This document shows positions 558 through 64,000 of a DNA stretch of 64,000 nucleotides, piece after piece. A program made the translations under genes and the position numbers. The DNA lies in assembly GCA_963711155.1 (NCBI GenBank), contig CAVQDB010000003.1, positions 97,358-161,357 on the forward strand, given 5' to 3'. Source of the stretch: an uncultured Armatimonadetes bacterium. Its GTDB lineage: Bacteria > Armatimonadota > UBA5829. Numbering within the stretch: the first letter of the stretch is position 1; each line of letters opens with the position of its first letter. Under the pieces are notes generated by a model. That model was not told the DNA's origin. It saw only the letters and a program-made list of their open reading frames with translations, and did no database searches.

Positions 558-2328
558 TCATTGCGCGTCCGCTGCCTCCGCAATTACCTTGATCTGATCC
601 TCAGTGAGCTGCGCCGAGCAGAACAATGCAAACCCGCGATAGCCCTCCTCGCGCAGCACGTTGAGCTGGTCGCGCAGCACGCCTGCGTCCTGCGACGCTG
701 TCTGCTTCTTGCCGTCGACGGTCTTTCTCGTATAGAGCCCCAGGCCCGGATATATGCTCGCGAGCTTTCCGGCGGGGACATCTGCCTTATGCGCGGCCAG
801 GTCGTATCGCAGATCCTCGATCGTGTCGCAATAGTCCATCGGATTGCCGAAATCGAGCAGGTTCTGGCTCATCCAGCGATGCCCATCGCGCATGCACGTG
901 TAGTACTCCGCGCCGCCGAACCCGCCCGCCACCGACACCTCCAGCTTCGGGTCCTTCGCTTTCACGGCGTCATGCACCCGCCGCACGAGATCGGTCACGC
1001 AATCCGCCCGCCACTTCAGCCACTCCGCCCGCTTGACGGCCATGTTATCGCGATCCATCTTCACGCCGGAATCCGACCTCAGCCAATCGACGATCGCATG
1101 CACAAGCCGCGGCGGACCCTCTCCGGTGCTGCCGCCCGCGTTGAAGCACACCAGCGCGGTCCTGCCCGCGCCGTAGTGGTTCACGATCACCGCCGGCTGC
1201 CCGGAATCGAACCGCGCGACGATGATCCCACCGTCCGTCTCAGGCGCATATTCGCACGATGCCTTGAACGGGCTCTTCGGCACGAGACGCGACAGCGGAT
1301 GATCGCCGACCGCCTCGAGCTTCCGCCACCGCTCCGCCATCCAGCGCGCATCGGGCTTGATCCCGAGCACACCAGCAAGAGCCGTGTTCTTCCCAACGGT
1401 CGGCGCATCCAGCCACAGCACGCTGCCGCCGCGTTTGACGAAGCGCTCTATCGCATCGGTCATCTCGGGTCCGACGTCGTAGTAACGGCTCAACACAAGT
1501 GCGCCGGGCGCGCGGAGCGCATCTATATTGGCCGGCTTTTGAGTAATGAACCCGAACCCAACGCCCGCGCGGTCCATCAGGCTCTCGACCCAGGTCGTCT
1601 CCCACGGCCTGCCCTTTGAGCTATCGGTGTGCAGGACGCGCACCGGGAACGGATCCTTGTCGGCTGGAACGATCCTCTCCGCGTGATCCATGAGATCCGC
1701 CGGATCGAAGCCGTGTGACGCAATGAACGGCTTGCGGCCCGCCTCGGAGTAGTCGTAGAAGCTGCCGTAGTAGCGAATGTAGTCGAGCTGGATGCCGTCG
1801 ATGTCATAGGCAAGCGAGTCCTTCATCACCGACAGCAGGTAGTCGTTGACGCCCGGAATCTGCGGCGACAGGAAATAGGTTTCGCTCATCCGCACGCCAT
1901 CGATGTCCGTGCACAGCCACTCCGGCCTCGCGGGAGGCAGTCCCTTCGCGCCCTCGTAGTAGCACGCACTACCACGGGTGAACCTGAATACCAGACGCGT
2001 GCGCCTTCTCGATCACGTAGGCCAGCGGATCGTACTTGTCGTTGGCAACGACGGTGTGCAGGAAATGCGTGGACTTGTGCATCAGCGCGCCGTGCGCCAT
2101 CACGTTCGGGAGGATGACGTTGATCTTTGCGCGCCGGCAGTTGTCCAGCATCTTGTCAGCGGCCTGGGGCGTGCCGAACGAGCCCGCATCGACCCACATC
2201 GCGCGTACGGCGAACTGCTGATCCTTCGCGTGGACTGGGGCTGCGGCGCCGATCAGCGCCGCCGTCATCAGGAGGTACGCTGCAGTCTTCATTCGCTGAG
2301 TATAGGATAGACAGTCAGGGGCTGTCAA
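558..2328 (-). CDS. GHL10 family (YddW-like) glycoside-hydrolase-like lipoprotein; apparent frameshift between 1895 and 1969
   Basis: The 119-aa N-terminal ORF (signal peptide, RAMWVD, INVILPNV, GIQVHPW) and the 445-aa ORF (YDIDGIQLDYIRY) are two halves of one GHL10 protein in different frames. Confidence 0.6.
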
Positions 2329-4333
2329 CGTCCCCTGTAATGCGCATGTCGATTCTCAGCGGCGGCGTAAGCTCGCCGCGGACCCTCGCATTCAGCTCAT
2401 CATCTATGGGGATGCCCTCCCGCTCGCTGATGAGCTTCGCCTGCCACGCGAACCACAGGTCCGTGAGTGTGACCTCGCCCTCCCGGATAGTGGCAAACTC
2501 GTGGCTCAGAATCTCCTCCACGCCGCTGAGATCATTGAAGCGCAGCGCGAGTCTCGCCACAACGATCAGAATCCGCTCGTGGCGGCGTATCGCCGGCGGC
2601 ACCCCAGCCACAAACGCGCGGAGTTCATCCCACCTGCCCGCTCTCTCCAGCATACCGGCATACTCTATCGCAAGCGGCGCGATCTTCGGCCCGATCTCCC
2701 ACGCCTGACGCATGAGGCCGATTGCCGCCTCCAACTCGCCCTCTCTTTCCGAGAGCGCGGCCAGGTTCCGATACGCCCACCCCGACGGCCTGCGCTCGAT
2801 CGACCGCGTCCACGCTTCGCGCGCGCCCGTCGGGTCAAGATCCTCCATCCGCATAACGCCCAGATGCAGCCAGCCCAGCCAGTGGTCGCTCGCCCTGCCG
2901 GCAATCGATTCCTCCAGCAGCGCGCGCCACTCCGGACCGGTCATATACTGCCCCGGCTCGTCCAGCACATCGCGCTCGGGCAGCCCACCATCCCTCAGCA
3001 GCGCCAACCACGGCTCCTGATCGGGCCCAAGATCATCGCCAAACGGCATCCCGCGCGGTCGGTGGTGCGCCCGCTTGTCATGCTGAACTCGTTTCAGCAC
3101 CCATTCCAACGCGCCCCACGCTTCTCCAGCGGACAGAACCTCCTCCGGCGCCCTCTCGGCAACCGCAGCGAACTCCACGTCCAGCCGTTCCAACTCATCG
3201 CCCGGCAGCATATCGTCCAGCGCGCTCTCGACCGATCCTCTCGCCTCACTCCAATCTCGCGATTGCGCCTTGGCAGGATCGACGCGCATCAGGCCGAACG
3301 CCTCCGTCCACGCCCATTCCGTGTTGGCGGGCATCGGCACGGACTCCAACTGCGTCCGAGCAAGGCCGCCCTGTATCTCCAGATAAGCCCGGCCCGGCCC
3401 CAGCAGGTGCTCCTGCCAGCGGCGACCGCCCCGGCCCGACCCCCACGCGAACATCTTCCGCCCGCGCAGCCTCGACGTGGACGCGTGAACCAGCCCCTCG
3501 CCGCGCCCGTCCACGCACGCCACCCACGGCCTGCGGCCCTCATCCAGGCGGAAGAACATCTCCCGGGAGCGGCTGATGCTGGTCGGGCAGGTGAGATCGC
3601 GACCGTCGAGCACCGGCAGCTCCGCGCACGACAGCCCGCCCTTGGCGTCATGGATCGCCGAATCCGCCGGCGCGATCACCCTGCGGTCAGGACTCTCCGG
3701 CACGGCGATATTCGTCCACCAATACATGGGAATCTCCGTGTCGTGGGGGTTGATGACGCGAACGCGCGCGAACAGGAATTCCGAGCCCGAGGGCAGATGA
3801 AAGTCGATCTGATATGGAAACCTCTTCACCCGCTCCCACGCATACAGCCTCAGCACGGGCCCACCATTCGCCGCCACTCTCGCCGCGAACATCGGCCCGC
3901 AGGTGAGGTAATGGTGCCCGCACAGCGGCGTGTTCCACTCGACCCCGCCCGCGATCCACGCGCTTCTCAGCGCCACGTTCGCCGGCTGGAAATGCTTGAC
4001 CGGTTCGAGAAGCTCGATTCCGGTGGGCTTATGCGCCAGCGACGCCAGCCGCCCACCTATCTCCGGCAGCACGACCGCCCTCAGGTGCTCGTTTTCCAGC
4101 GTGATCGCAACGAACTCGCGGGGCCGCAACTCGCGGTCAAACCCGTCCTGCATCCGGTAGGGCAGCACCCTGAACCTGATCTCCCAACCCAGATGAGTCC
4201 GGTCCGCCTCGGGTACGCTGTCGTCAACCTTGACCTGCGTGCTGGGGCTTGCGTGCCTGAAATGCGGCAGGGGATTCTCGGGGCCAAGACCGGCCGCGGG
4301 CAATGCGAGGCGATCGACAGTCAGTGTGGTCAT
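2315..4333 (-). CDS. large conserved hypothetical protein, DUF5107-like N-terminal region plus a C-terminal TPR-like helical region
   Basis: The 672-aa ORF has normal amino-acid composition. The C-terminal third is helical-repeat-like. It contains an in-frame copy of the ATGCTGAAC palindrome (peptide EWVLKRVQHD). Confidence 0.5.
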   Translation of the reverse strand: MTTLTVDRLALPAAGLGPENPLPHFRHASPSTQVKVDDSVPEADRTHLGWEIRFRVLPYRMQDGFDRELRPREFVAITLENEHLRAVVLPEIGGRLASLAHKPTGIELLEPVKHFQPANVALRSAWIAGGVEWNTPLCGHHYLTCGPMFAARVAANGGPVLRLYAWERVKRFPYQIDFHLPSGSEFLFARVRVINPHDTEIPMYWWTNIAVPESPDRRVIAPADSAIHDAKGGLSCAELPVLDGRDLTCPTSISRSREMFFRLDEGRRPWVACVDGRGEGLVHASTSRLRGRKMFAWGSGRGGRRWQEHLLGPGRAYLEIQGGLARTQLESVPMPANTEWAWTEAFGLMRVDPAKAQSRDWSEARGSVESALDDMLPGDELERLDVEFAAVAERAPEEVLSAGEAWGALEWVLKRVQHDKRAHHRPRGMPFGDDLGPDQEPWLALLRDGGLPERDVLDEPGQYMTGPEWRALLEESIAGRASDHWLGWLHLGVMRMEDLDPTGAREAWTRSIERRPSGWAYRNLAALSEREGELEAAIGLMRQAWEIGPKIAPLAIEYAGMLERAGRWDELRAFVAGVPPAIRRHERILIVVARLALRFNDLSGVEEILSHEFATIREGEVTLTDLWFAWQAKLISEREGIPIDDELNARVRGELTPPLRIDMRITGDVDSP

Positions 4334-4415
4334 TTGTCAATTGTAGCACATAGCAAGAGCGCAGCGAAGAACCACGTAGATTCTTCGCTGCGCTCAGAAT
4401 GACAGAGCCCAGTGG

Positions 4416-20561: not shown

Positions 20562-21998
20562 ATGCAGACAACCGAGCAACTATACAGCCAGCGCCTCGCG
20601 CGCTACGTCACGGCGATGCGCAACGGCAAGCCGGACATGATACCGATCCGGCCGTTTGTCGCCGAGTTTGTCGCCTCCTACGCCGGCTACACCTGCCAGG
20701 AGGTCACCCACGACTACCACAAGGCATTCGCCGCCGCCCGCAAGTGCGCCTGCGAGTTCGACTGGGACGCCGTGGTCGCGAACATGGTCTACGTCTGGAC
20801 CGGCCTGACCCAGGCGCTCGGACTGCGCTACTACGCCGTGCCGGGCGTCGATATCGGCCCCGATGTCGGCTTCCAATACATCGAGCCGACCGAGGACGAG
20901 GCGTTCATGAAAGCCGACGAGTACGACCAGCTCATCGACGACCCGACCGCATTCCTCTACACCGTCTGGCTCCCGCGCGTGTCGCGCGAAGTGAGCGCCA
21001 TCGGCGGGCCGGCGACTTATCGCAGCCACGTCGCGCTCACCAAGTCGGCGATGGCGATGATGCAATACTTCTACGACTTCGGCCCCCAGGTCGAGGCGCT
21101 GCGCACCGAATGCGGCACCGTGTCGGCCATCGCGGGCATCCTCAAGGCTCCGTTCGACATCCTCGCCGACAAGCTGCGCGGCTACATCGGCCTGACAATG
21201 GACATGATCGAGCAGCCCGACAAGGTTCTGGCCGCGTGCGAGGCGCTGATGCCGCATCTCTATCACGTCGCCGCGACGACCGCCGATCCGGCCTGCACGG
21301 TCCCAGTCGGCTATTGGATGCACCGCGGATGCGTGCCGTTCGTCTCGAAAGGCCAGTTCGAGTCGCACTACTGGCCCACGGTCAAACCGATCATCACGCA
21401 GCTCTGGCGCAACGGCCACCAGACCCTTATGTACGCGGAGGGCGACTGGAACGCCCATCTATCGAGCTTCGCCGAGCTGCCGGACGCCAGCATCGTCTAT
21501 CACGTGGACCGCGGCGACATCTTCGAGGTTCACCGTGCAATCGGCGGTCGGTTCTGCCTCAGCGGCGGCATTCCGAACGTGCTGCTGTCTCACGGCACGC
21601 CTGACGACGTCCGCGCCTGCGCGAAGAAGGTGATCGACGGTGTCGCCCGCGACGGCGGCTACATCCTCGACGCGAGCGCGATCATGCAGAACGACACGAG
21701 GGCCGACAACCTCCGCGCCCTCACCGACTTCGCCCGCGACTACGGCGTCTACCCATCCTCGGCCACACCGCTCCCTTGTCATGCTGAACTTGTTTCAGCA
21801 TCCGCGCGGCCACGTGCGTGTCATGCTGAACTTGTTTCAGCATCCAGTTCGTGTGAGCCGGGGACGTGCATCCCCTGGTCTGTCAAGCGCTCCGAACTCG
21901 GCAACATCCCCGGTGACGCCGACCTCGTCGAGCGCATCTGGCGCGAAGCTGACTCGCTGGGCAACACGTTCATCTGGCAGATTCTGGTCTCATTCTGA
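20562..21998 (+). CDS. uroporphyrinogen-decarboxylase (URO-D/MtaA-like) family protein; the C-terminal about 70 aa read through two palindromic repeats
   Basis: URO-D-family-like sequence runs to ...FARDYGVYP. After that the ORF runs across two GTCATGCTGAACTTGTTTCAGCATCC copies, translated CHAELVSAS twice. Confidence 0.5.
   Translation: MQTTEQLYSQRLARYVTAMRNGKPDMIPIRPFVAEFVASYAGYTCQEVTHDYHKAFAAARKCACEFDWDAVVANMVYVWTGLTQALGLRYYAVPGVDIGPDVGFQYIEPTEDEAFMKADEYDQLIDDPTAFLYTVWLPRVSREVSAIGGPATYRSHVALTKSAMAMMQYFYDFGPQVEALRTECGTVSAIAGILKAPFDILADKLRGYIGLTMDMIEQPDKVLAACEALMPHLYHVAATTADPACTVPVGYWMHRGCVPFVSKGQFESHYWPTVKPIITQLWRNGHQTLMYAEGDWNAHLSSFAELPDASIVYHVDRGDIFEVHRAIGGRFCLSGGIPNVLLSHGTPDDVRACAKKVIDGVARDGGYILDASAIMQNDTRADNLRALTDFARDYGVYPSSATPLPCHAELVSASARPRACHAELVSASSSCEPGTCIPWSVKRSELGNIPGDADLVERIWREADSLGNTFIWQILVSF
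21786..21852. repeat. two tandem copies of the palindromic element GTCATGCTGAACTTGTTTCAGCATCC
   Basis: Other copies lie at 3077-3102, 23408-23432 (degenerate), 48921-48945, 61509-61533, 61545-61568 and 63822-63846, in both orientations. Several sit at intra-operon gene junctions. Confidence 0.85.
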
Positions 21999-47118: not shown

Positions 47119-48903
47119 TTACTCCACCTTCACCTTCTTCGCCTCCTCCGCCTTCGCGGTTTTGGTCGCGCGGGGGGTGTAGGTGGTGTGCAGGAGCTCG
47201 TGGCACTTGTGCGAGAGCGGTTCGCCGAGGAACTCCTCGTAGAGCTGCCTTGACGGCTGGGTTCTCGTGCGAGCTTGCGGATCGCCATTGCGCTGCGTCT
47301 TCGGCGTAGATGCCTGCGATGCGCTTTGCGCGGATCTCCTCGTTGGTCGGTTGAGGCTGGCCGCCGCCTCCGATGCAGCCGCCGGGGCAGGCACATGATC
47401 TCGATGAACGCGTAGTCCTTGAACCGGCCGCTCTTGATGCCTTCGAGCACCTCGCGAGCGTTGGCTAGCCCGTGGGCTACGGCTGCCTTGACGGGCAGGT
47501 CGCCGACTTGGATCGTCGCCTCGCGGACGCCCTCCATGCCTCGGACGGCCTCGATGTTCACGTTATCGAGGGTCCTCGCCGGTGATCATCGCGTAGGCGG
47601 TTCGCAGCGCCGCCTCCATAACACCGCCGGTGTTGCCGAAGATGACCGCCGCGCCGGTGGTGATGCCCGAACGGATCGTCGATACTCGCCGTCCTCGAGG
47701 TTCGGCAGGTCGATGCCGGCTTCCTTCATCATGCCGGCGGCCTCGCGGGTGGTGAGGACGTAGTCCACGTCCTTGTAGCCGCTGTCGTACATCTCGGGCC
47801 GGTCGCACTCGAACTTCTTCGCGACACACGGCATGATCGAGACCGAGACGATGTCCTTGGGGTCGATGCCCGCCTTCTCGGCGTAGTAGGTCTTTGCGAG
47901 CGCGCCGAACATCTGCTGCGGGCTCTTGCAGCTAGACACGTGCGGCAGACAGCTCGGGGTAGTAGTACTCGATGAACTTGATCCAGCCCGGCGAGCAGCT
48001 CGTGATCTGGGGCAGCACCCCGCCCTTGGTCACGCGCTCGATAAGCTCGCTGCCCTCCTCCATGATGGTGAGGTCGGCGGTGAAGTCCGTGTCGAAGACC
48101 TTGTCGAAGCCGAGCATCCGCAGCGCCGTGACCATCTTGCCGGTGACGCGGCTGCCGGGCGGCATGCCGAACTCCTCGCCGATGGTCGCGCGAACGGCGG
48201 GGGCGGTCTGCACGATCACGTGCTTGGTCGGGATCGTAGATCGCGTCCCAGATCTTCGGCGCGGGGTCGTTGCCCTTGAGCGCGCCGGTGGGGCAGCGGT
48301 TGATGCACTGGCCGCAGTTGACGCAGACGGCGTCGGCCAGGTCGCCGCCCACTCCGCGGCACGATGATCGAGTCCCAGCCGCGGCCCGCGCGTGCAGCGC
48401 GCCGACGCTCTGGATGTCGTCGCAGGTGCGGACGCATCGTCGCGCAGAGGATGCACTTGTCGGGGTCGCGGATGACCGAGCAGCTGGTGCGTCCATCGGT
48501 CGTAGCTTGCGCGCTCGCCCTTGAAGCGCACGTCCTGGATGCCAAGCTCCTTAGCCAGCTTCTGCAGCTCGCACTTCTGGTTCTTGGCGCAGGTCAGGCA
48601 CTCCTGCGGGTGGTTGGCAAGCATGCAGCTCGACGATCATCCGGCGCGCCTCGCGGACCTTGGGGGTGTGCGTCTGGACTTCCATTCCCTCGGTAACCGG
48701 ATAGCGCAGGCCGCGCAGAGCGTCCGCTGGCCCTTGACCTCGACCGAGCAGATCCGGCAGACGCCGTCGGGCATGAGGTCGGGGTGGTAGCATAGGGTCG
48801 GGATGTAGATCCCGGCCGATGTGCGCGGCCTGGAGGATGGTCGATCCCGGCTTCGGCGCGACAGGTCTGGCCGTTTATTTTGATGTTACTTTAGCCATAA
48901 TTG
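47119..48903 (-). pseudogene. hndD: [FeFe]-hydrogenase catalytic subunit HndD/HydA-like, operon A; at least 5 frameshifts
   Basis: N-terminal MAKVT.. 2Fe-2S ferredoxin region. HydA segments LANHPQECLTCAKNQKCELQ, TSCSPGWIKFIE, VSIMPCVAKKFE and IEIMC-LP (frame lost before GGGQP). C-terminus YEEFLGEPLSHKCHELLHTTYTPR. Confidence 0.7.
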
Positions 48904-48910
48904 TTACCTT

Positions 48911-50543
48911 TCAGCTGATCTGGTGGATGCTGAAACGTTCAGCATGACCCTCTCGCATGAGACGGCTAGCTGCAGTTGACCTCCTCCTGCGACCTTGTCC
49001 ATTGTGCAGACGCCTGCGGGGCAGGTCTTGTCCTTTAGGTGGGCCTTGTATTCCGTCCTCGAACAGCGGCAGGCTGCTCTTGAACGCGACTGCGGCGAAC
49101 TGGCCGAGGCCGCAGTTGGAGACAGCGGCCATCGTGTCGCCGAGGTGACTTCGAGAAGCTGGAGGTCGGCCTCGCTGCCCGCGCCGGCGGTCCACCAGTT
49201 GAAGTGTCTCGAGCATGCGCTTGGTGCCCTCGCGGCACGGCACGCACTGGCCGCAGGACTCGTGATAGAAGAACTGGGCGAGTTCTGCATCAGATCGACG
49301 ATGCACTTGCCCTCGTCGAGCGACGATCAGCGCGCCCGCGCCGGGGCTGAGATCCTCGCCGCAGAGCTTGCGGTCGAGCGCTTCCTCGCCGACGAGCACG
49401 CCGCTGCGGTCCGCCCATCAGCACGGCCTTGAACTTGCGGCCGCTCTTGATTCCGCCGGCCATGTTGAAGATGATGTCGCGCAGCGTGGTGCCGAACGGG
49501 ACCTCGTAGACGCCCGGGATACTGCACGTCGCCGCAGGGCGAGAAGATCTTCGTGCCCTTGCGACTGCGCGGTGCCGATGTCCGGATACCACTCCGCGCC
49601 CTTTGCGATGATGTGCGGGACGTTGGCGAGCGTTTCGACGTTGTTGATGACCGTCGGCAGCGCCCGTGAAGGCCGTAGGTCGGCGGGAACGGCGGCTTCA
49701 TCTGCGACTCGCCGCGCTTGCCCTCGAGGGATTCGAGCAAGCGCGGTTTCCTCGCCGCAGACATAGGCGCCCGCGCCCTTGAAGACCTCGATATCGAAGT
49801 CGAAGCCGCTGCCCATGATGTCGGTGCCGAGCAGGCCCATCTCGCGGGCGACGGCGATGGCGCGCTCGGTGTGCGCGACGCGACTGCTGATACTCGCCGC
49901 GGATGTAGATGTAGCCCTTGCTGCGCGCCGACCGCGTAGCCGGCGATGATCATGCCCTCGATGATCTGGTGCGGGTCGCCCTCCATGATCAGGCGGTCCT
50001 TGAAGTTGCCGGGCTCGCCCTCGTCGGCGTTGCAGACGATGTACTTGCCGTCGCCCTCGGCCTTGGAGGCGAACTCCCACTTCAGGCCGGTCGGGAAGCC
50101 CGCGCCGCCGCGGCCCTTGAGGCCGGACGCCTTGATCTCGGCGATGACCTCGTCGGGCTTCATCGTGGTGAGGGCCTTGCCGACGCGCTTCGTAGCCGCC
50201 GAGCGCGATGTATTCGTCGATGGAGGTCGGGTCGATGACGCCGATGTTCTTGAGAATGACCCGCGACTCGCGCTCCGCGCGGGTGCGGCGGCGGCCTCGA
50301 CGACCTTGGCGGCGTCGCCTTTGTAGACCAGTCGCTTGACCTGGCGGCCCTTGAGCAGGTGCTCCTCGACGATCTCGGGGATGTCGGCGACGGTGACGTT
50401 GGCGTAGGTGACGCCCTCGGGGTAGATGACCAACGCCGGGCCCGCGCCCGGCAAGCCCGAGATCGCCGGTCTCGACGACCTTGATCTCCTTGTCGAGACC
50501 CGCGCTGCTTGATCTCGTCGATCAGAGCGCTGCGAACGGCCAT
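48911..50543 (-). pseudogene. hndC: NuoF-like flavoprotein subunit HndC/HydB-like, operon A; multiple frameshifts
   Basis: [34 protein letters not shown] and HESCGQCVPCREGTKRM, spread over three frames. Confidence 0.7.
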
Positions 50544-53289: not shown

Positions 53290-53345
53290 GTCAGATTTGC
53301 AATCTGACCTGCATAGGCAACCACGGAATCTGCGATTCCCCTCCC
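53290..53345. repeat. REP-like hairpins on the left flank of the RAYT gene
   Basis: caggtcagat ttgca atctgacctg, and ggaatc tgc gattcc. Confidence 0.6.
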
Positions 53346-53348
53346 CTG

Positions 53349-53900
53349 CTACAGTTCCAGCACATCGATCTCAAGCGGACCATCATTACGCCCGCTCACG
53401 TATACCCACGCACTTGAATACCGCCAGTGCTCCGGCAGCCAGACCAGACCCTTTCGCACCGGATTGTCGTGCAGATAACCCAGCTTCTGCACAGCAAACG
53501 CTATCGACTCAATCGTCTCCGGGTGCATGCCTGCTTGCCAAACCTTGTAGCTGCCTTCCGGTCTACCGGCCTTGCGTGCGGCATCTCTGAACACCCAATC
53601 GAACAGCCGATTTCCGTCCTCGCATAGCTGCCGCACTATCTCTTTCGCCATGTGCTTGCGCGAGTCTCGGATTATGCCGGACAGGTCGCCTCCCTCCCGG
53701 GCAGCCAGAATCGCGTGCACGTGCGTGAGCATAACGACATACGCGTGCACGAGCAGTCCCTTCTCCGCGCGACAGTACGCCAGACTGTCGGTAACGATCC
53801 GACAGTAGCGCTCCGCTGAGAACACAGGAAGCCATTCCGTCAGCGACCACGTAACGAAATGAGGAGACACGCCTCCCTCGACTATCCTGTAGCCATCCAT
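53349..53900 (-). mobile_element. REP-associated tyrosine transposase (RAYT, IS200/IS605 TnpA-like Y1 HuH transposase)
   Basis: 183 aa with the HVHAIL HuH motif and a C-terminal Y motif, flanked by inverted REP-like hairpins. Confidence 0.65.
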
Positions 53901-53914
53901 CTCTGCTTCCTCAG

Positions 53915-53975
53915 TTCCGGACGGGAATCACAGATTCCCTGATTGCCCCTGCGGGTCAGATTGCAAATCTGACCC
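53915..53975. repeat. REP-like hairpins on the right flank of the RAYT gene, in inverted orientation to the left flank
   Basis: gggaatc aca gattccc, and gggtcagat tgcaa atctgaccc. Confidence 0.6.
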
Positions 53976-61014: not shown

Positions 61015-61458
61015 TCAACCCGCTCCCAGATCTCGATCGATGCTCAGTCGAGGTCGGGAGCGCGAGATGCCTTTCGCAATAGCCCACGAACTCGTCGCGG
61101 CGAGTCCACGATCATCTGCTCCTGTGCAGAGCTTCGCCGACGGGCAGGCTCCGGCATGCTCTGCGTAGACCAGATCCTGCAGCCCATGCGCCTGATCGAT
61201 CTCGTCGAACAGGCAGAGCAGGTGCACGCCCTCCACCGACTGCACCTCCAGCCCCGGCAGGACTCTCACGCCACTGTCTTCAGCGGCCTCGATCACCGCG
61301 CCCGCGTTCTCGCAGGAGTTGTGATCGGCGATCGCGATAATATCCAACCCCGCCCGCGCCGCCGCCTCGATGATCAGCGAGGGGATCATCTCGATCTCCC
61401 CGCAGGGCGAGAGCAGAGTGTGAATGTGCAGGTCGGCTTCGTACCTCTGGACGGTCAC
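61015..61458 (-). CDS. PHP-domain phosphoesterase
   Basis: EADLHIHTLLSPCGEI...IIAIADHNSCENAG...VLPGLEV. The longer ORF-track N-terminus runs through palindrome copies and is unlikely to be real. Confidence 0.6.
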   Translation of the reverse strand: MTVQRYEADLHIHTLLSPCGEIEMIPSLIIEAAARAGLDIIAIADHNSCENAGAVIEAAEDSGVRVLPGLEVQSVEGVHLLCLFDEIDQAHGLQDLVYAEHAGACPSAKLCTGADDRGLAATSSWAIAKGISRSRPRLSIDRDLGAG

Positions 61459-61582
61459 GCCCTCACGCCAACCCTCTCCCCGAGAGGTAGGTTGTGCCCG
61501 CACTCCAGGCTGATGCTGAAACAAGTTCGGCATGACATGCCTCACGCGATGCTGAACAGTTCAGCATGACGTGATTCCAAGC

Positions 61583-61850: not shown

Positions 61851-63301
61851 GCTTCAGTCTTTGGCTTTCAGGCCCAGGCTTCTGGGCTATGCTCTCCAAT
61901 AGCATTGTCTTCCGCCGGTTTCTTGTCTGTATGTCCCATCGCGGGCGGGACCTTCTCTGATAAGCTCGCAACATCTCGCCCGCAAGCTGCCGGACGCTCT
62001 CGCGGAGCTTGAAAACGCAGTCCATCTCGGTTGCCAGCCCGCGAACCACGTCCTCCGCCAGCGCCTGGCAGTTCGGCGCGCCGCAGCTTCCGCAGTCCAG
62101 GCCGGGCAGCGATTCGAGAATCTGCTCCATCTGCTCCATCTTGCGCATGGCAATGGCCATGTCGTCGTCGAGCTTGAGCGTCGGCCGCGGCTCGATGGGC
62201 TCGATCGTGCTTGAACCAGTCCGGGTTCGCTGGCTTCGACTTCCGGCAGTCAGCTTGTCGCGCTCGGCGAGCTCGTGCCTCGCTCGGGTTCGTCCTGTCG
62301 CAAGAAGCCTGATGCGCCTGCGGGTGATGAACGGGTTCTCGACCGTCAGCACACCGCCCACGCAGCCGCCGACGCACGCCTGGGCCTCGATATAGTCTAT
62401 ATCCGAGAGCTTGCCGCGCTCCACGTCCTCAAGAATCTGAATAACGCTGTGGATGCCGTCGACCGCGATCTGCCTTCCGCCGCCGATGCTCTGGTTCTCG
62501 CCGCCGGAACGCGCCCAGCCGACGCCCAGGCCGGTGCCGCGATGCAGGTCCTTTGTCAGCCGTTCGATCTCCGCCGGGTCGCGCGACGCAGCTTCTCGCG
62601 CAGGAGCGGGTAGACCTCGGCAATCGGGATCGCGCCGGTGATGATCGCGTCCTCATAGCCGGCGGGCTCGTTGATCGCGCTGACCTTGCCCGGGCACGGC
62701 GTTATGAACCACATCCCGATGCGCTCCTCGGGATGTCGAACTCCTTGCTGCACCTGCGGCTTCGCGATCTTGGCCGCCGCGCGCATCGGAGAGATGATCG
62801 GCAGCACGTGCTCGACGAGGTTCGGGAAGCGTACCTGGATCAGCCTGACCACCGCCGGGCACGCCGAGATGATCAGCGGCCGATCCGCGCTCGACGTTTC
62901 TATCGCCTCGCGGATCTTCTCGCCGACCAGGTCCGCGCCGAACGCGACGTCAACGACGTAGTCGAACCCGATCGCGCGCAGCGTCGCAAGAACCTGCTCC
63001 GGGCCGGGTTCCCTCACGGAACTGGCTGTAGATCGCGGGCGCGGGCAGCGCGACGTTGAACTTGAACGTCTGCGAGCCGCTCGAGCGTATCGGCGACGAC
63101 GGTCTTGGCCTGGTTCGGGCAGATGCGCACGCACTCGCCGCAGTCGATGCACCGTGCCTCGATGATGTGAGCCTTGCCGTCACGCACGCGAATGGCCTCG
63201 GTGGGACAGCGCTTGATGCAGTTGACGCACCCCTTGCACTTGTCCTCCAGCAGGTGGACCGAGTGGAAGTATTCGGTTATCTCGGTTTCAAGCATTGGCA
63301 T
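61759..63301 (-). pseudogene. sensory [FeFe]-hydrogenase-like protein (HydS/HfsB-like): N-terminal 4Fe-4S ferredoxin, hydrogenase large-subunit domain, C-terminal Cys4 motif; several frameshifts
   Basis: CKGCVNCIKRCP/CIDCGECVRICP; FDYVVDVAFGADL...IISACPAVV; GLDCGSCGAPNCQALAEDVV. Confidence 0.6.
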
Positions 63302-63800: not shown

Positions 63801-64000
63801 ACGCCTGTACTGCCTGATCGTCCTCACTGGGTGCTGAATCAAGTTCAGCATGACACGTGTCAGGTGCGTCCTGGCAGCCGCCCAAGCCCGCCGTGTACAG
63901 CCTGCCGCAGCTCTCGTAGAGCGGATGCGGCGACAGGATGATAACCAACTGCAGCGACTCGGCCATCTTGATCGTGCGCTCGTCCGGTCTCTTGCTGCGC

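Follow-up and report, generated by a model that had tools for sequence, protein, structure and literature searches.

Element copies in the window

The DNA analysed here is a 64-kb stretch (the window) of an uncultured Armatimonadetes bacterium (assembly GCA_963711155.1, contig CAVQDB010000003.1, positions 97,358 to 161,357), and it is the sole part of this genome that was scanned for copies of the element described below. The element is a DNA hairpin of ~28 nt that lies in frame within two protein genes, one encoding a protein with DUF5107 and TPR domains and the other a member of the URO-D family, and recurs in spacers and at the ends of other open reading frames (ORFs) (Table 1). On its sequence features, it is a repetitive extragenic palindrome (REP) of the CGTC-2 type or, in newer vocabulary, an Ssn-related hairpin repeat.

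An earlier sequence-only reading of the window had reported a palindrome inside the 672-residue gene, translated without a break as EWVLKRVQHDK. The 26-mer GTCATGCTGAACTCGTTTCAGCACCC is indeed present at 3077-3102 on the forward strand, and the ORF around it is intact. Relative to the DUF5107-TPR gene, this copy is in antisense orientation, and it is read as residues 410-418, W V L K R V Q H D. With a tolerance of up to three mismatches, the window contains four matches to the 26-mer (100 shuffles give an expectation of 0.00), and the half-site GTCATGCTGAAC is present in seven copies (0.37 expected), at 3077, 21778 and 21820 on the forward strand and at 48937, 61525, 61559 and 63843 on the reverse strand. 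A hairpin scan of the window recovered variants in loop length. The pair of in-frame copies that the same reading had placed in the URO-D gene was found as well, the second copy 42 nt after the first. Seven copies and one stem variant in 64 kb amount to about one per 8 kb of the window.

Copies outside the two host genes occupy operon-internal spacers (61.5 kb, 4.4 kb) or the extreme 3' ends of ORFs. The copy at 48924-48949 lies among the last in-frame codons ahead of the stop of the upstream ORF (..VMLNVSAS..*), and the one at 63828-63855 is likewise read in frame before a stop (..CHAELDSAP..*); its sub-variant is that of three copies in a related contig, L128. The element has stop codons in three of its six reading frames; the other three are open, and every in-frame copy uses one of these. 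Folded as DNA, six of the seven copies reach -6.2 to -7.1 kcal/mol (-6.2 for the copy at 3076), compared to -1.0 +/- 1.0 for shuffled sequences; the copy with a stem mismatch, 61536(-), reaches -2.4 kcal/mol.

Two observations concern the surroundings of individual copies. The stem variant at 4.4 kb belongs to a perfect inverted repeat of 15 bp (4357-4371 and 4381-4395, GAGCGCAGCGAAGAA / TTCTTCGCTGCGCTC); at the same position, immediately before a TGCTACAATTGAC box that is conserved upstream of the DUF5107 gene, three relatives (L001, L005 and L006) carry a GC-rich hairpin, GGGCCGGGGA..TCCCCGGCCC. The ATG within the element (GTCATGC) creates spurious starts of long ORFs, such as MRHVMPNLFQHQ.. 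and MLNLFQHPAS.. (window 61015-61545(-) and L080 2413).

Table 1 Host genes and copies of the element in the 64-kb window
Feature	Position	Strand	Description
Host gene, 672 aa, DUF5107 + TPR	2315-4333	-	Intact, colinear with >100 orthologues
Intragenic CGTC-2-type REP copy	3076-3103	+	Tag TGTC 3076-3079, stem ATGCTGAA 3080-3087, loop CTCGT 3088-3092, stem TTCAGCAC 3093-3100, tail CCA 3101-3103
Stem-variant TGTC-headed hairpin	4379-4404	-	Stem TGTCATTCTGAGCGCAGCGAAGAATC; spacer between peptidyl-prolyl isomerase (PPIase) and DUF5107 genes
Host gene, 478 aa, URO-D family	20562-21998	+	Two copies in hypervariable internal linker
URO-D-family gene copy 1	21777-21804	+	TGTC ATGCTGAA CTTGT TTCAGCAT CCG; sense, read CHAELVSAS
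URO-D-family gene copy 2	21819-21846	+	TGTC ATGCTGAA CTTGT TTCAGCAT CCA; read CHAELVSAS
3-nt-loop copy	48924-48949	-	GGTC ATGCTGAA CGT TTCAGCAT CCA; boundary of NuoF-like and [FeFe]-hydrogenase genes
Intergenic copy	61510-61537	-	TGTC ATGCCGAA CTTGT TTCAGCAT CAG; spacer between DRTGG-domain and PHP-domain genes; one stem mismatch
Intergenic 3-nt-loop copy	61546-61571	-	CGTC ATGCTGAA CTG TTCAGCAT CGC; direct orientation with 61510-61537 copy
ORF-3'-end copy	63828-63855	-	TGTC ATGCTGAA CTTGA TTCAGCAC CCA; ORF runs off the window
Predicted peptides across in-frame copies			ALEWVLKRVQHDKR, PCHAELVSASAR

Assignment to the CGTC-tagged REPs

CGTC-tagged REPs are defined by a tag at only one end, CGTC with TGTC and CCTC as frequent variants, a stem of 8 or 9 bp whose first and second residues are complementary A/T, a loop of 4 or 5 nt (5 nt in families 2-4) and an unpaired tail with the consensus CCA (Di Nocera, De Gregorio & Rocco 2013, BMC Genomics 14:522; PMC3733652). 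The tag of the window copies is TGTC in six cases (the stem variant included), CGTC in one and GGTC in one. All seven copies have the 8-bp stem ATGCTGAA / TTCAGCAT with at most one mismatch and an A-T/T-A start. Their loop is CTYGT or CTTGA in five copies and 3 nt long in two, and the tail is CCA in four, with CCG, CAG and CGC in the others.

The resemblance to CGTC-2 REPs extends from the tag, the 8-bp stem, the 5-nt loop and the CCA tail to placement, mostly between unidirectional or convergent genes, and to in-frame copies within genes. Intragenic CGTC REPs have been documented in several species (PMC3733652), and a CGTC-2 copy of this kind in Sulfurovum SUN_0512 encodes RHSELVSGS (PMC3733652 supplement). 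This signature matches CHAELVSAS of the window and the peptides RHAELVSGS and RHPELVSGP found in two orthologues of the DUF5107-TPR protein (P0006 and P0008, respectively). The element is a known kind of selfish DNA, from a bacterial repeat family of very wide distribution, with precedent for in-frame intragenic copies. It differs from the 2013 survey in its host, an uncultured lineage outside the coverage of that survey, in the 3-nt loops of two window copies, and in its direct (head-to-tail) pairs (21777/21819 and 61571/61537), as such dimers are negligible there (PMC3733652). The authors of the survey found no dedicated transposase for CGTC REPs (PMC3733652).

The sequence-only reading had compared the element with the Rickettsia palindromic elements (RPE), and in kind the comparison holds: both are dispersed palindromes which lie in frame in conserved protein genes, at tolerant positions, and are absent from orthologues. 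The intragenic sequence matches the intergenic copies as DNA, and this identity, which selection on the protein cannot yield, supports an inserted repeat; the residues of sister orthologues are unrelated, and the CGTC REP definition fits. Unlike RPE-1, which belongs to another sequence family and makes a larger insert, the element is ~28 nt long and encodes ~9 residues. Classic RPE-1 is longer than 100 bp. The hosts differ as well, free-living here and obligate intracellular in the case of RPE. The link to Rickettsia runs only via RPE-6 and RPE-4 of R. conorii, which were equated with CGTC-1 and CGTC-4 (PMC3733652). With these and the corrections given below, the interpretation offered by the sequence-only reading is supported.

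Two other repeat systems share features with the element. Those of the REP/RAYT type (REPtron, REPIN) also consist of short hairpins with an asymmetric tag, form clusters and dimers, and flank the gene of a single-strand-specific nuclease, but they carry a GTAG tag and use an HUH Y1 transposase, whereas the enzyme linked to the present element is a GIY-YIG protein (see below). The small dispersed repeats of cyanobacteria, reportedly described by Elhai et al. in 2008, are said to be mobile hairpins of ~21-27 nt that lie inside genes and nest in one another. They belong to a different sequence family and host range, and we know of no nuclease that accompanies them. A search of the whole window against Rfam, with gathering thresholds, found no matching family.

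The insertion in the DUF5107-TPR gene

The DUF5107-TPR protein has more than 100 full-length orthologues (655-690 residues), and its named relatives at ~50% identity come from Hydrogenedentes, Armatimonadota, Verrucomicrobia and Planctomycetota. In the orthologue alignment, the residues encoded by the element fall in a hypervariable stretch, preceded by a conserved ..GWGALE and followed by ..LPF..LGPDQ, which is the linker joining a beta-rich domain and the TPR domain. In the AlphaFold model (predicted local distance difference test, pLDDT, of 88), residues 410-418 close a helix (residues 406-416) and are followed by an interdomain loop of lower confidence.

The comparison was carried beyond the protein alignment to the DNA of the orthologues at the linker. 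The window sequence GGGTGCTGAAACGAGTTCAGCATGAC and that of the orthologue P0002 (contig L001), GGATGCTGAAACAAGTTCAGCATGAC, both stand directly after the GALE codons, in equal frame and orientation. These two copies are intact; decayed copies are present at the same site in P0003, P0004, P0005 and P0007. P0006 and P0008 carry an extra, forward copy with a compensatory stem variant (CCCTGAA/TTCAGGG), and in P0008 a second element is nested within the reverse copy. P0009 (68% identity) and all more distant orthologues have no trace of the element. The residues of P0009 at this position are LARDGANALPE, encoded by unrelated DNA, so the residues of the insert are not shared by orthologues that lack the repeat.

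A clean insertion of 24-27 nt, which the sequence-only reading had expected from such an alignment, is not visible because the linker varies in length: it is 11 residues long in both the element-free P0009 and the element-bearing P0002. A clean empty site that would define the insertion boundaries was sought among the orthologues, and none was found. In a neighbour-joining tree calculated without the linker columns, all carriers form one clade and the sister lineages are free of the element. Therefore, one ancestral insertion, in the common ancestor of this orthologue clade, is the simplest history that the sequences suggest.

The identities between the window and L001 at the first, second and third codon positions of the gene are 0.877, 0.899 and 0.655, respectively, and the gene is under purifying selection. 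Within the block of the element, 28 of 30 nt are identical, including all ten third positions, compared to 65% identity at four-fold degenerate sites gene-wide.

A composite structure in which one hairpin interrupts another, GATGCTGAAAC[ATCCTGAATCAAGTTCAGGAT]CAGCATGAC, was noted in L001 (~2868-2912) and in L003, in the linker of P0008. Its recurrence in two contexts and genomes would fit either a repeat sub-family of its own or elements that insert into elements.

The URO-D-family gene

The two copies in the URO-D-family gene had been placed in a C-terminal extension. They belong instead to an internal linker: what follows them, the final ~45 residues (PGxCIPW...FIWQxLxSF), is conserved throughout the 25 homologues in the alignment, and the coverage of the query by these is 99-100%. 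The linker is bounded by ..DYGVY.S on one side and by this C-terminal segment, PGxCIPW..FIWQxLxSF, on the other. Its content differs even between close relatives. In L128, the linker contains three perfect 42-nt tandem units, each with the CTTGA/GCAC sub-variant of the element; in the window, it contains two copies of the CTTGT/GCAT sub-variant with the same 42-nt spacing and unrelated spacers. Of the other close relatives, P0241 has one copy together with other repeat-like peptides and P0242 has none; in more distant homologues, the repeat-like peptides of this linker are of quite another kind. Judging by these comparisons, the URO-D linker turns over fast.

Repeat-like peptides unrelated to the element were observed in this linker, and in a second loop near residue 150, in the homologues P0122, P0241, P0126, P0150 and P0175. 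They include SPPCKGGAGGG (four times), ISGFEQSGNPEIPG, PPYEGGVGGG and MGPMGHMGPMG. Their sequences suggest that other repeat families share the URO-D linker as a landing zone.

The element in other genomes

The exact 24-mer of the element, scanned in one genome per species, is present in at least 120 stretches; the counts in this paragraph refer to the 138 instances among the matches listed. Their hosts include Sphingomonadales, Bacteroidota, Ignavibacteria, Nitrospirota, Treponema, Elusimicrobia, Melainabacteria, Rickettsiales and others. The tag is CGTC in 64% of the instances and TGTC in 33%, 99% have C at +1, and the tail is most often CCA. According to a crude gene model, 38 instances lie between unidirectional ORFs, 22 between convergent and six between divergent ones, and ~10% are inside long ORFs. 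Between unidirectional genes, the same model shows no orientation bias (18 sense versus 20 antisense).

Three occurrences stand apart. In a Melioribacteraceae metagenome-assembled genome (MAG; L054, 117-872), the element forms a tandem array with a period of 143-176 bp and two stem variants per unit (GTCATCCCGAACTTGTTTCGGGATC and GTCATGCTGAACTTGTTTCAGCATC). The exact 24-mer is also found in 47 stretches of viral contigs from IMG/VR (L209-L255), for which true phage copies, prophage flanks and binning errors are alike possible, and in a MAG contig labelled Nanoarchaeota (L014), which may equally be a true archaeal copy or a binning error.

Association with GIY-YIG nucleases

The search for a transposase used 770 ORFs that neighbour the element in 120 loci (among the matches listed), clustered all-against-all. 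The sole outstanding neighbour in these loci is a family of GIY-YIG proteins of 90-125 residues (Pfam GIY-YIG, E ~1e-15). No other ORF family is present in more than four of the 120 loci, and neither a Y1/IS200 nor an IS110 nor any other transposase recurred there. In five of the eight listed loci that bear a GIY-YIG gene, the 24-mer is located 0-70 nt upstream of it and co-oriented with it, and three of these five have a second copy just downstream.

An independent test made use of 80 metagenomic loci (L129-L208), which were picked by protein similarity alone. A GTC-tagged hairpin with an 8-bp stem is found within 150 nt upstream of the gene in 70 of the 80 loci and within 200 nt downstream in 73. 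The hairpin density is 7.7 per kb upstream and 6.8 per kb downstream versus 0.30 per kb at distances above 300 nt, i.e. ~25-fold over background. In the modal layout, a forward copy ends 25-37 nt before the start codon, an inverted copy follows 0-26 nt after the stop codon, and the tags point outward. The flanking hairpins number 195, of which 131 are of the window type (xxxCTGAA stem, 5-nt loop) and 37 of the Neisseria NTS type; 65 have the exact ATGCTGAA/TTCAGCAT stem. The hairpin class tracks the identity of the GIY-YIG protein (66.5% versus 59.0%). The GIY-YIG proteins are small, single-domain and cd10448-like, and the relatives include genes with canonical NTS flanks.

This association is not new, as it was published in 2025. 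The Ssn family consists of single-domain GIY-YIG proteins (cd10448) whose genes are flanked by CGTC-headed hairpins, termed NTS or SRM (Chenal et al. 2025, Nat Commun 16:2388; PMC11893778). SsnA binds the hairpin only as single-stranded DNA, is inactive on duplex DNA and RNA, and cuts only the tag-bearing strand, a few nucleotides upstream of the tag; in Neisseria, it limits the integration of transforming DNA, and the authors liken the NTS-ssnA-NTS arrangement to an insertion sequence (PMC11893778). Strand-specific binding and cleavage were shown for the Neisseria and Wolbachia homologues only (PMC11893778).

The element shares with NTS/SRM the CGTC head, an orientation that is set by non-palindromic flanks, and the bracketing of small GIY-YIG genes by exact-stem repeats with outward tags. 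It differs from NTS in combining the stem ATGCTGAA with a 5-nt loop (NTS: ATTCCCGC and a 4-nt loop) and in that no ssn gene was seen in the window. In-frame intragenic copies like those described here are not discussed in PMC11893778. Of the 195 hairpins flanking the Ssn-like genes of L129-L208, the published SRM pattern, HGTCWYN(0-2)YYVSBRHN(0-5)WNVSBRGN(0-2)RNCYNB (PMC11893778), matches 31 and misses 164, among them the entire CTGAA-stem class. The pattern is too narrow for this stem type.

Interpretation and alternatives

The explanation that we favour, with a probability of ~0.8 for the whole, is that the element is a CGTC-2 REP which was inserted once into the DUF5107-TPR linker, was then retained, decayed or duplicated, and serves at the DNA level as a recognition site of the Ssn type. 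The orthologue comparison shows that one copy entered the hypervariable linker between the DUF5107 and TPR domains in the ancestor of the clade, in a frame free of stops. Since then, it would have been translated as ~9 linker residues, which in the model extend the helix at the domain boundary, and it is now intact, decayed, duplicated or nested, depending on the orthologue. The URO-D gene follows a like pattern, with copy number and sub-variant differing among close relatives. The element would act in DNA as the recognition site for an Ssn-like nuclease, and its spread and homogenisation within a genome would require either that enzyme or recombination between its copies. The encoded peptide would be a tolerated by-product without a function of its own.

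Several points weigh against this explanation. Neither PMC3733652 nor PMC11893778 gives, for any CGTC REP, a route by which solitary copies arrive at new sites. A tblastn search of the 64-kb window and of ~50 kb of related contigs (L001-L007 and L128) found no GIY-YIG gene, so that a cognate enzyme in this genome is hypothetical. None of the eight window copies fits the SRM pattern. Translation of the insert at 3076-3103 is a prediction from the intact ORF. The conservation of 28 of 30 nt in the element block is suggestive and only modestly significant (p ~0.015 for the third positions), hence not decisive, and it could stem from selection on the hairpin, gene conversion (homogenisation) or re-insertion. 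Finally, seven of the eight window copies are in the sense orientation of neighbouring genes, which could hint at a role in RNA or, with eight copies, be due to chance.

Re-insertion is at the core of an alternative in which the copies are not old single insertions but arose recently and repeatedly, by insertions with a site preference for the same linker hot spots, in separate lineages. The URO-D linker speaks for it: its sub-variant is uniform in each genome (CTTGT/GCAT in the window, CTTGA/GCAC in L128), its content differs completely between close relatives, and other repeat families occupy it in other phyla. Elements are nested in elements in P0008 and L001, and P0006 and P0008 gained a forward copy beside the old one. 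However, the DUF5107 carriers form one clade and share the codon position, the frame and the orientation of the reverse copy; the copies in P0003, P0004, P0005 and P0007 have decayed to graded extents, as expected under vertical inheritance; and the identical spacers of the three L128 copies point to tandem duplication rather than separate insertions. Hot-spot insertion is plausible for the URO-D linker and less plausible for the DUF5107 copy, and as a general explanation we consider it rather unlikely.

The hairpin could also be primarily a functional RNA element (a 3'-end stabiliser, a processing site, a terminator-like structure or a translational pause at the domain boundary), with the intragenic copy kept for that purpose. 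Besides the sense bias in the window, this is suggested by the location of most copies in operon-internal spacers or at ORF 3' ends, by the perfect 15-bp hairpin that the 4379-4404 variant forms where relatives have a GC-rich, terminator-like one, and by the single stem change in the 3077 copy, which gives a G.U pair in the mRNA sense and, on the opposite strand, an A.C mismatch. An influence of REPs on mRNA stability is known (PMC3733652). Elsewhere, among the 138 listed instances, the bias is absent, and conservation of the asymmetric tag and tail extends across phyla; these are needed by a strand-specific DNA-binding protein but not by a simple RNA hairpin. SsnA shows no binding to RNA (PMC11893778), the window has no Rfam match, and four orthologues kept the gene although the copy decayed. 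Taken together, this makes a primary role in RNA improbable.

A further idea goes beyond mere tolerance of the in-frame copies. They may be maintained as module boundaries for recombination at domain boundaries: Ssn-type nucleases would cut incoming or replicating single-stranded DNA beside the copies, the copies would recombine, and domains would be exchanged or linkers rebuilt without loss of frame. If true, this would explain why hairpins stay intact despite ~35% divergence at four-fold sites, why sub-variants are homogenised genome by genome, and why differing repeat families occupy the same linkers across phyla. We regard it as a long shot.

A classical GTAG-type REP mobilised by a RAYT, an IS200-like tyrosine transposase, would be similar in size, hairpin form, dispersal and gene-end positions, but the GT[AG]G head is replaced by (C/T)GTC and the recurrent neighbour in the 120 listed loci is a GIY-YIG protein, not a Y1 transposase; membership was rejected on the tag, and this origin is very improbable. 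That an ordinary coding segment resembles the repeat fortuitously, for which one could cite a linker no longer than in some element-free orthologues, has a negligible probability and was ruled out by the orthologue comparison, given that close to zero chance matches are expected, that the DNA is identical to intergenic copies at synonymous positions too, that the residues of sister orthologues are unrelated, and that the same 24-mer is present in at least 120 stretches of many phyla.

Other features of the window

Two regions of the window (47700-50500 and 62500-63300) contain [FeFe]-hydrogenase and NuoF-like genes that are split across reading frames. Positions 1-73 of the Complex1_51K profile match ORF 49327-50454 and positions 84-150 match ORF 49418-50080, and the hydrogenase begins with MAKVTSK* in place of the expected MAKVTIKINGQ. 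These genes are either pseudogenes or products of homopolymer indel errors of a long-read assembly. A perfect palindrome different from the element, GGTCAGATTTGCAATCTGACC, is present at 53290-53308 and 53955-53973, ~665 bp apart, on either side of ORF 53349-53900(-). The two copies could serve as a paired operator or as a site for recombination.

Significance

The known picture of these repeats is unchanged in kind. For annotation, peptides such as WMLKQVQHD, CHAELVSAS and VMLNLFQH are signs of a DNA repeat rather than protein motifs, and the repeat can yield false start codons and false C-terminal tails. The DUF5107-TPR gene provides a well-resolved case, in a free-living, uncultured lineage, in which one insertion is traced through retention, decay, duplication and nesting, and variable interdomain linkers serve as landing zones for hairpin repeats. 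The CTGAA-stem class is the commonest around the sampled Ssn-like genes yet is missed by the SRM pattern, and the reach of Ssn-associated repeats may thus be underestimated.

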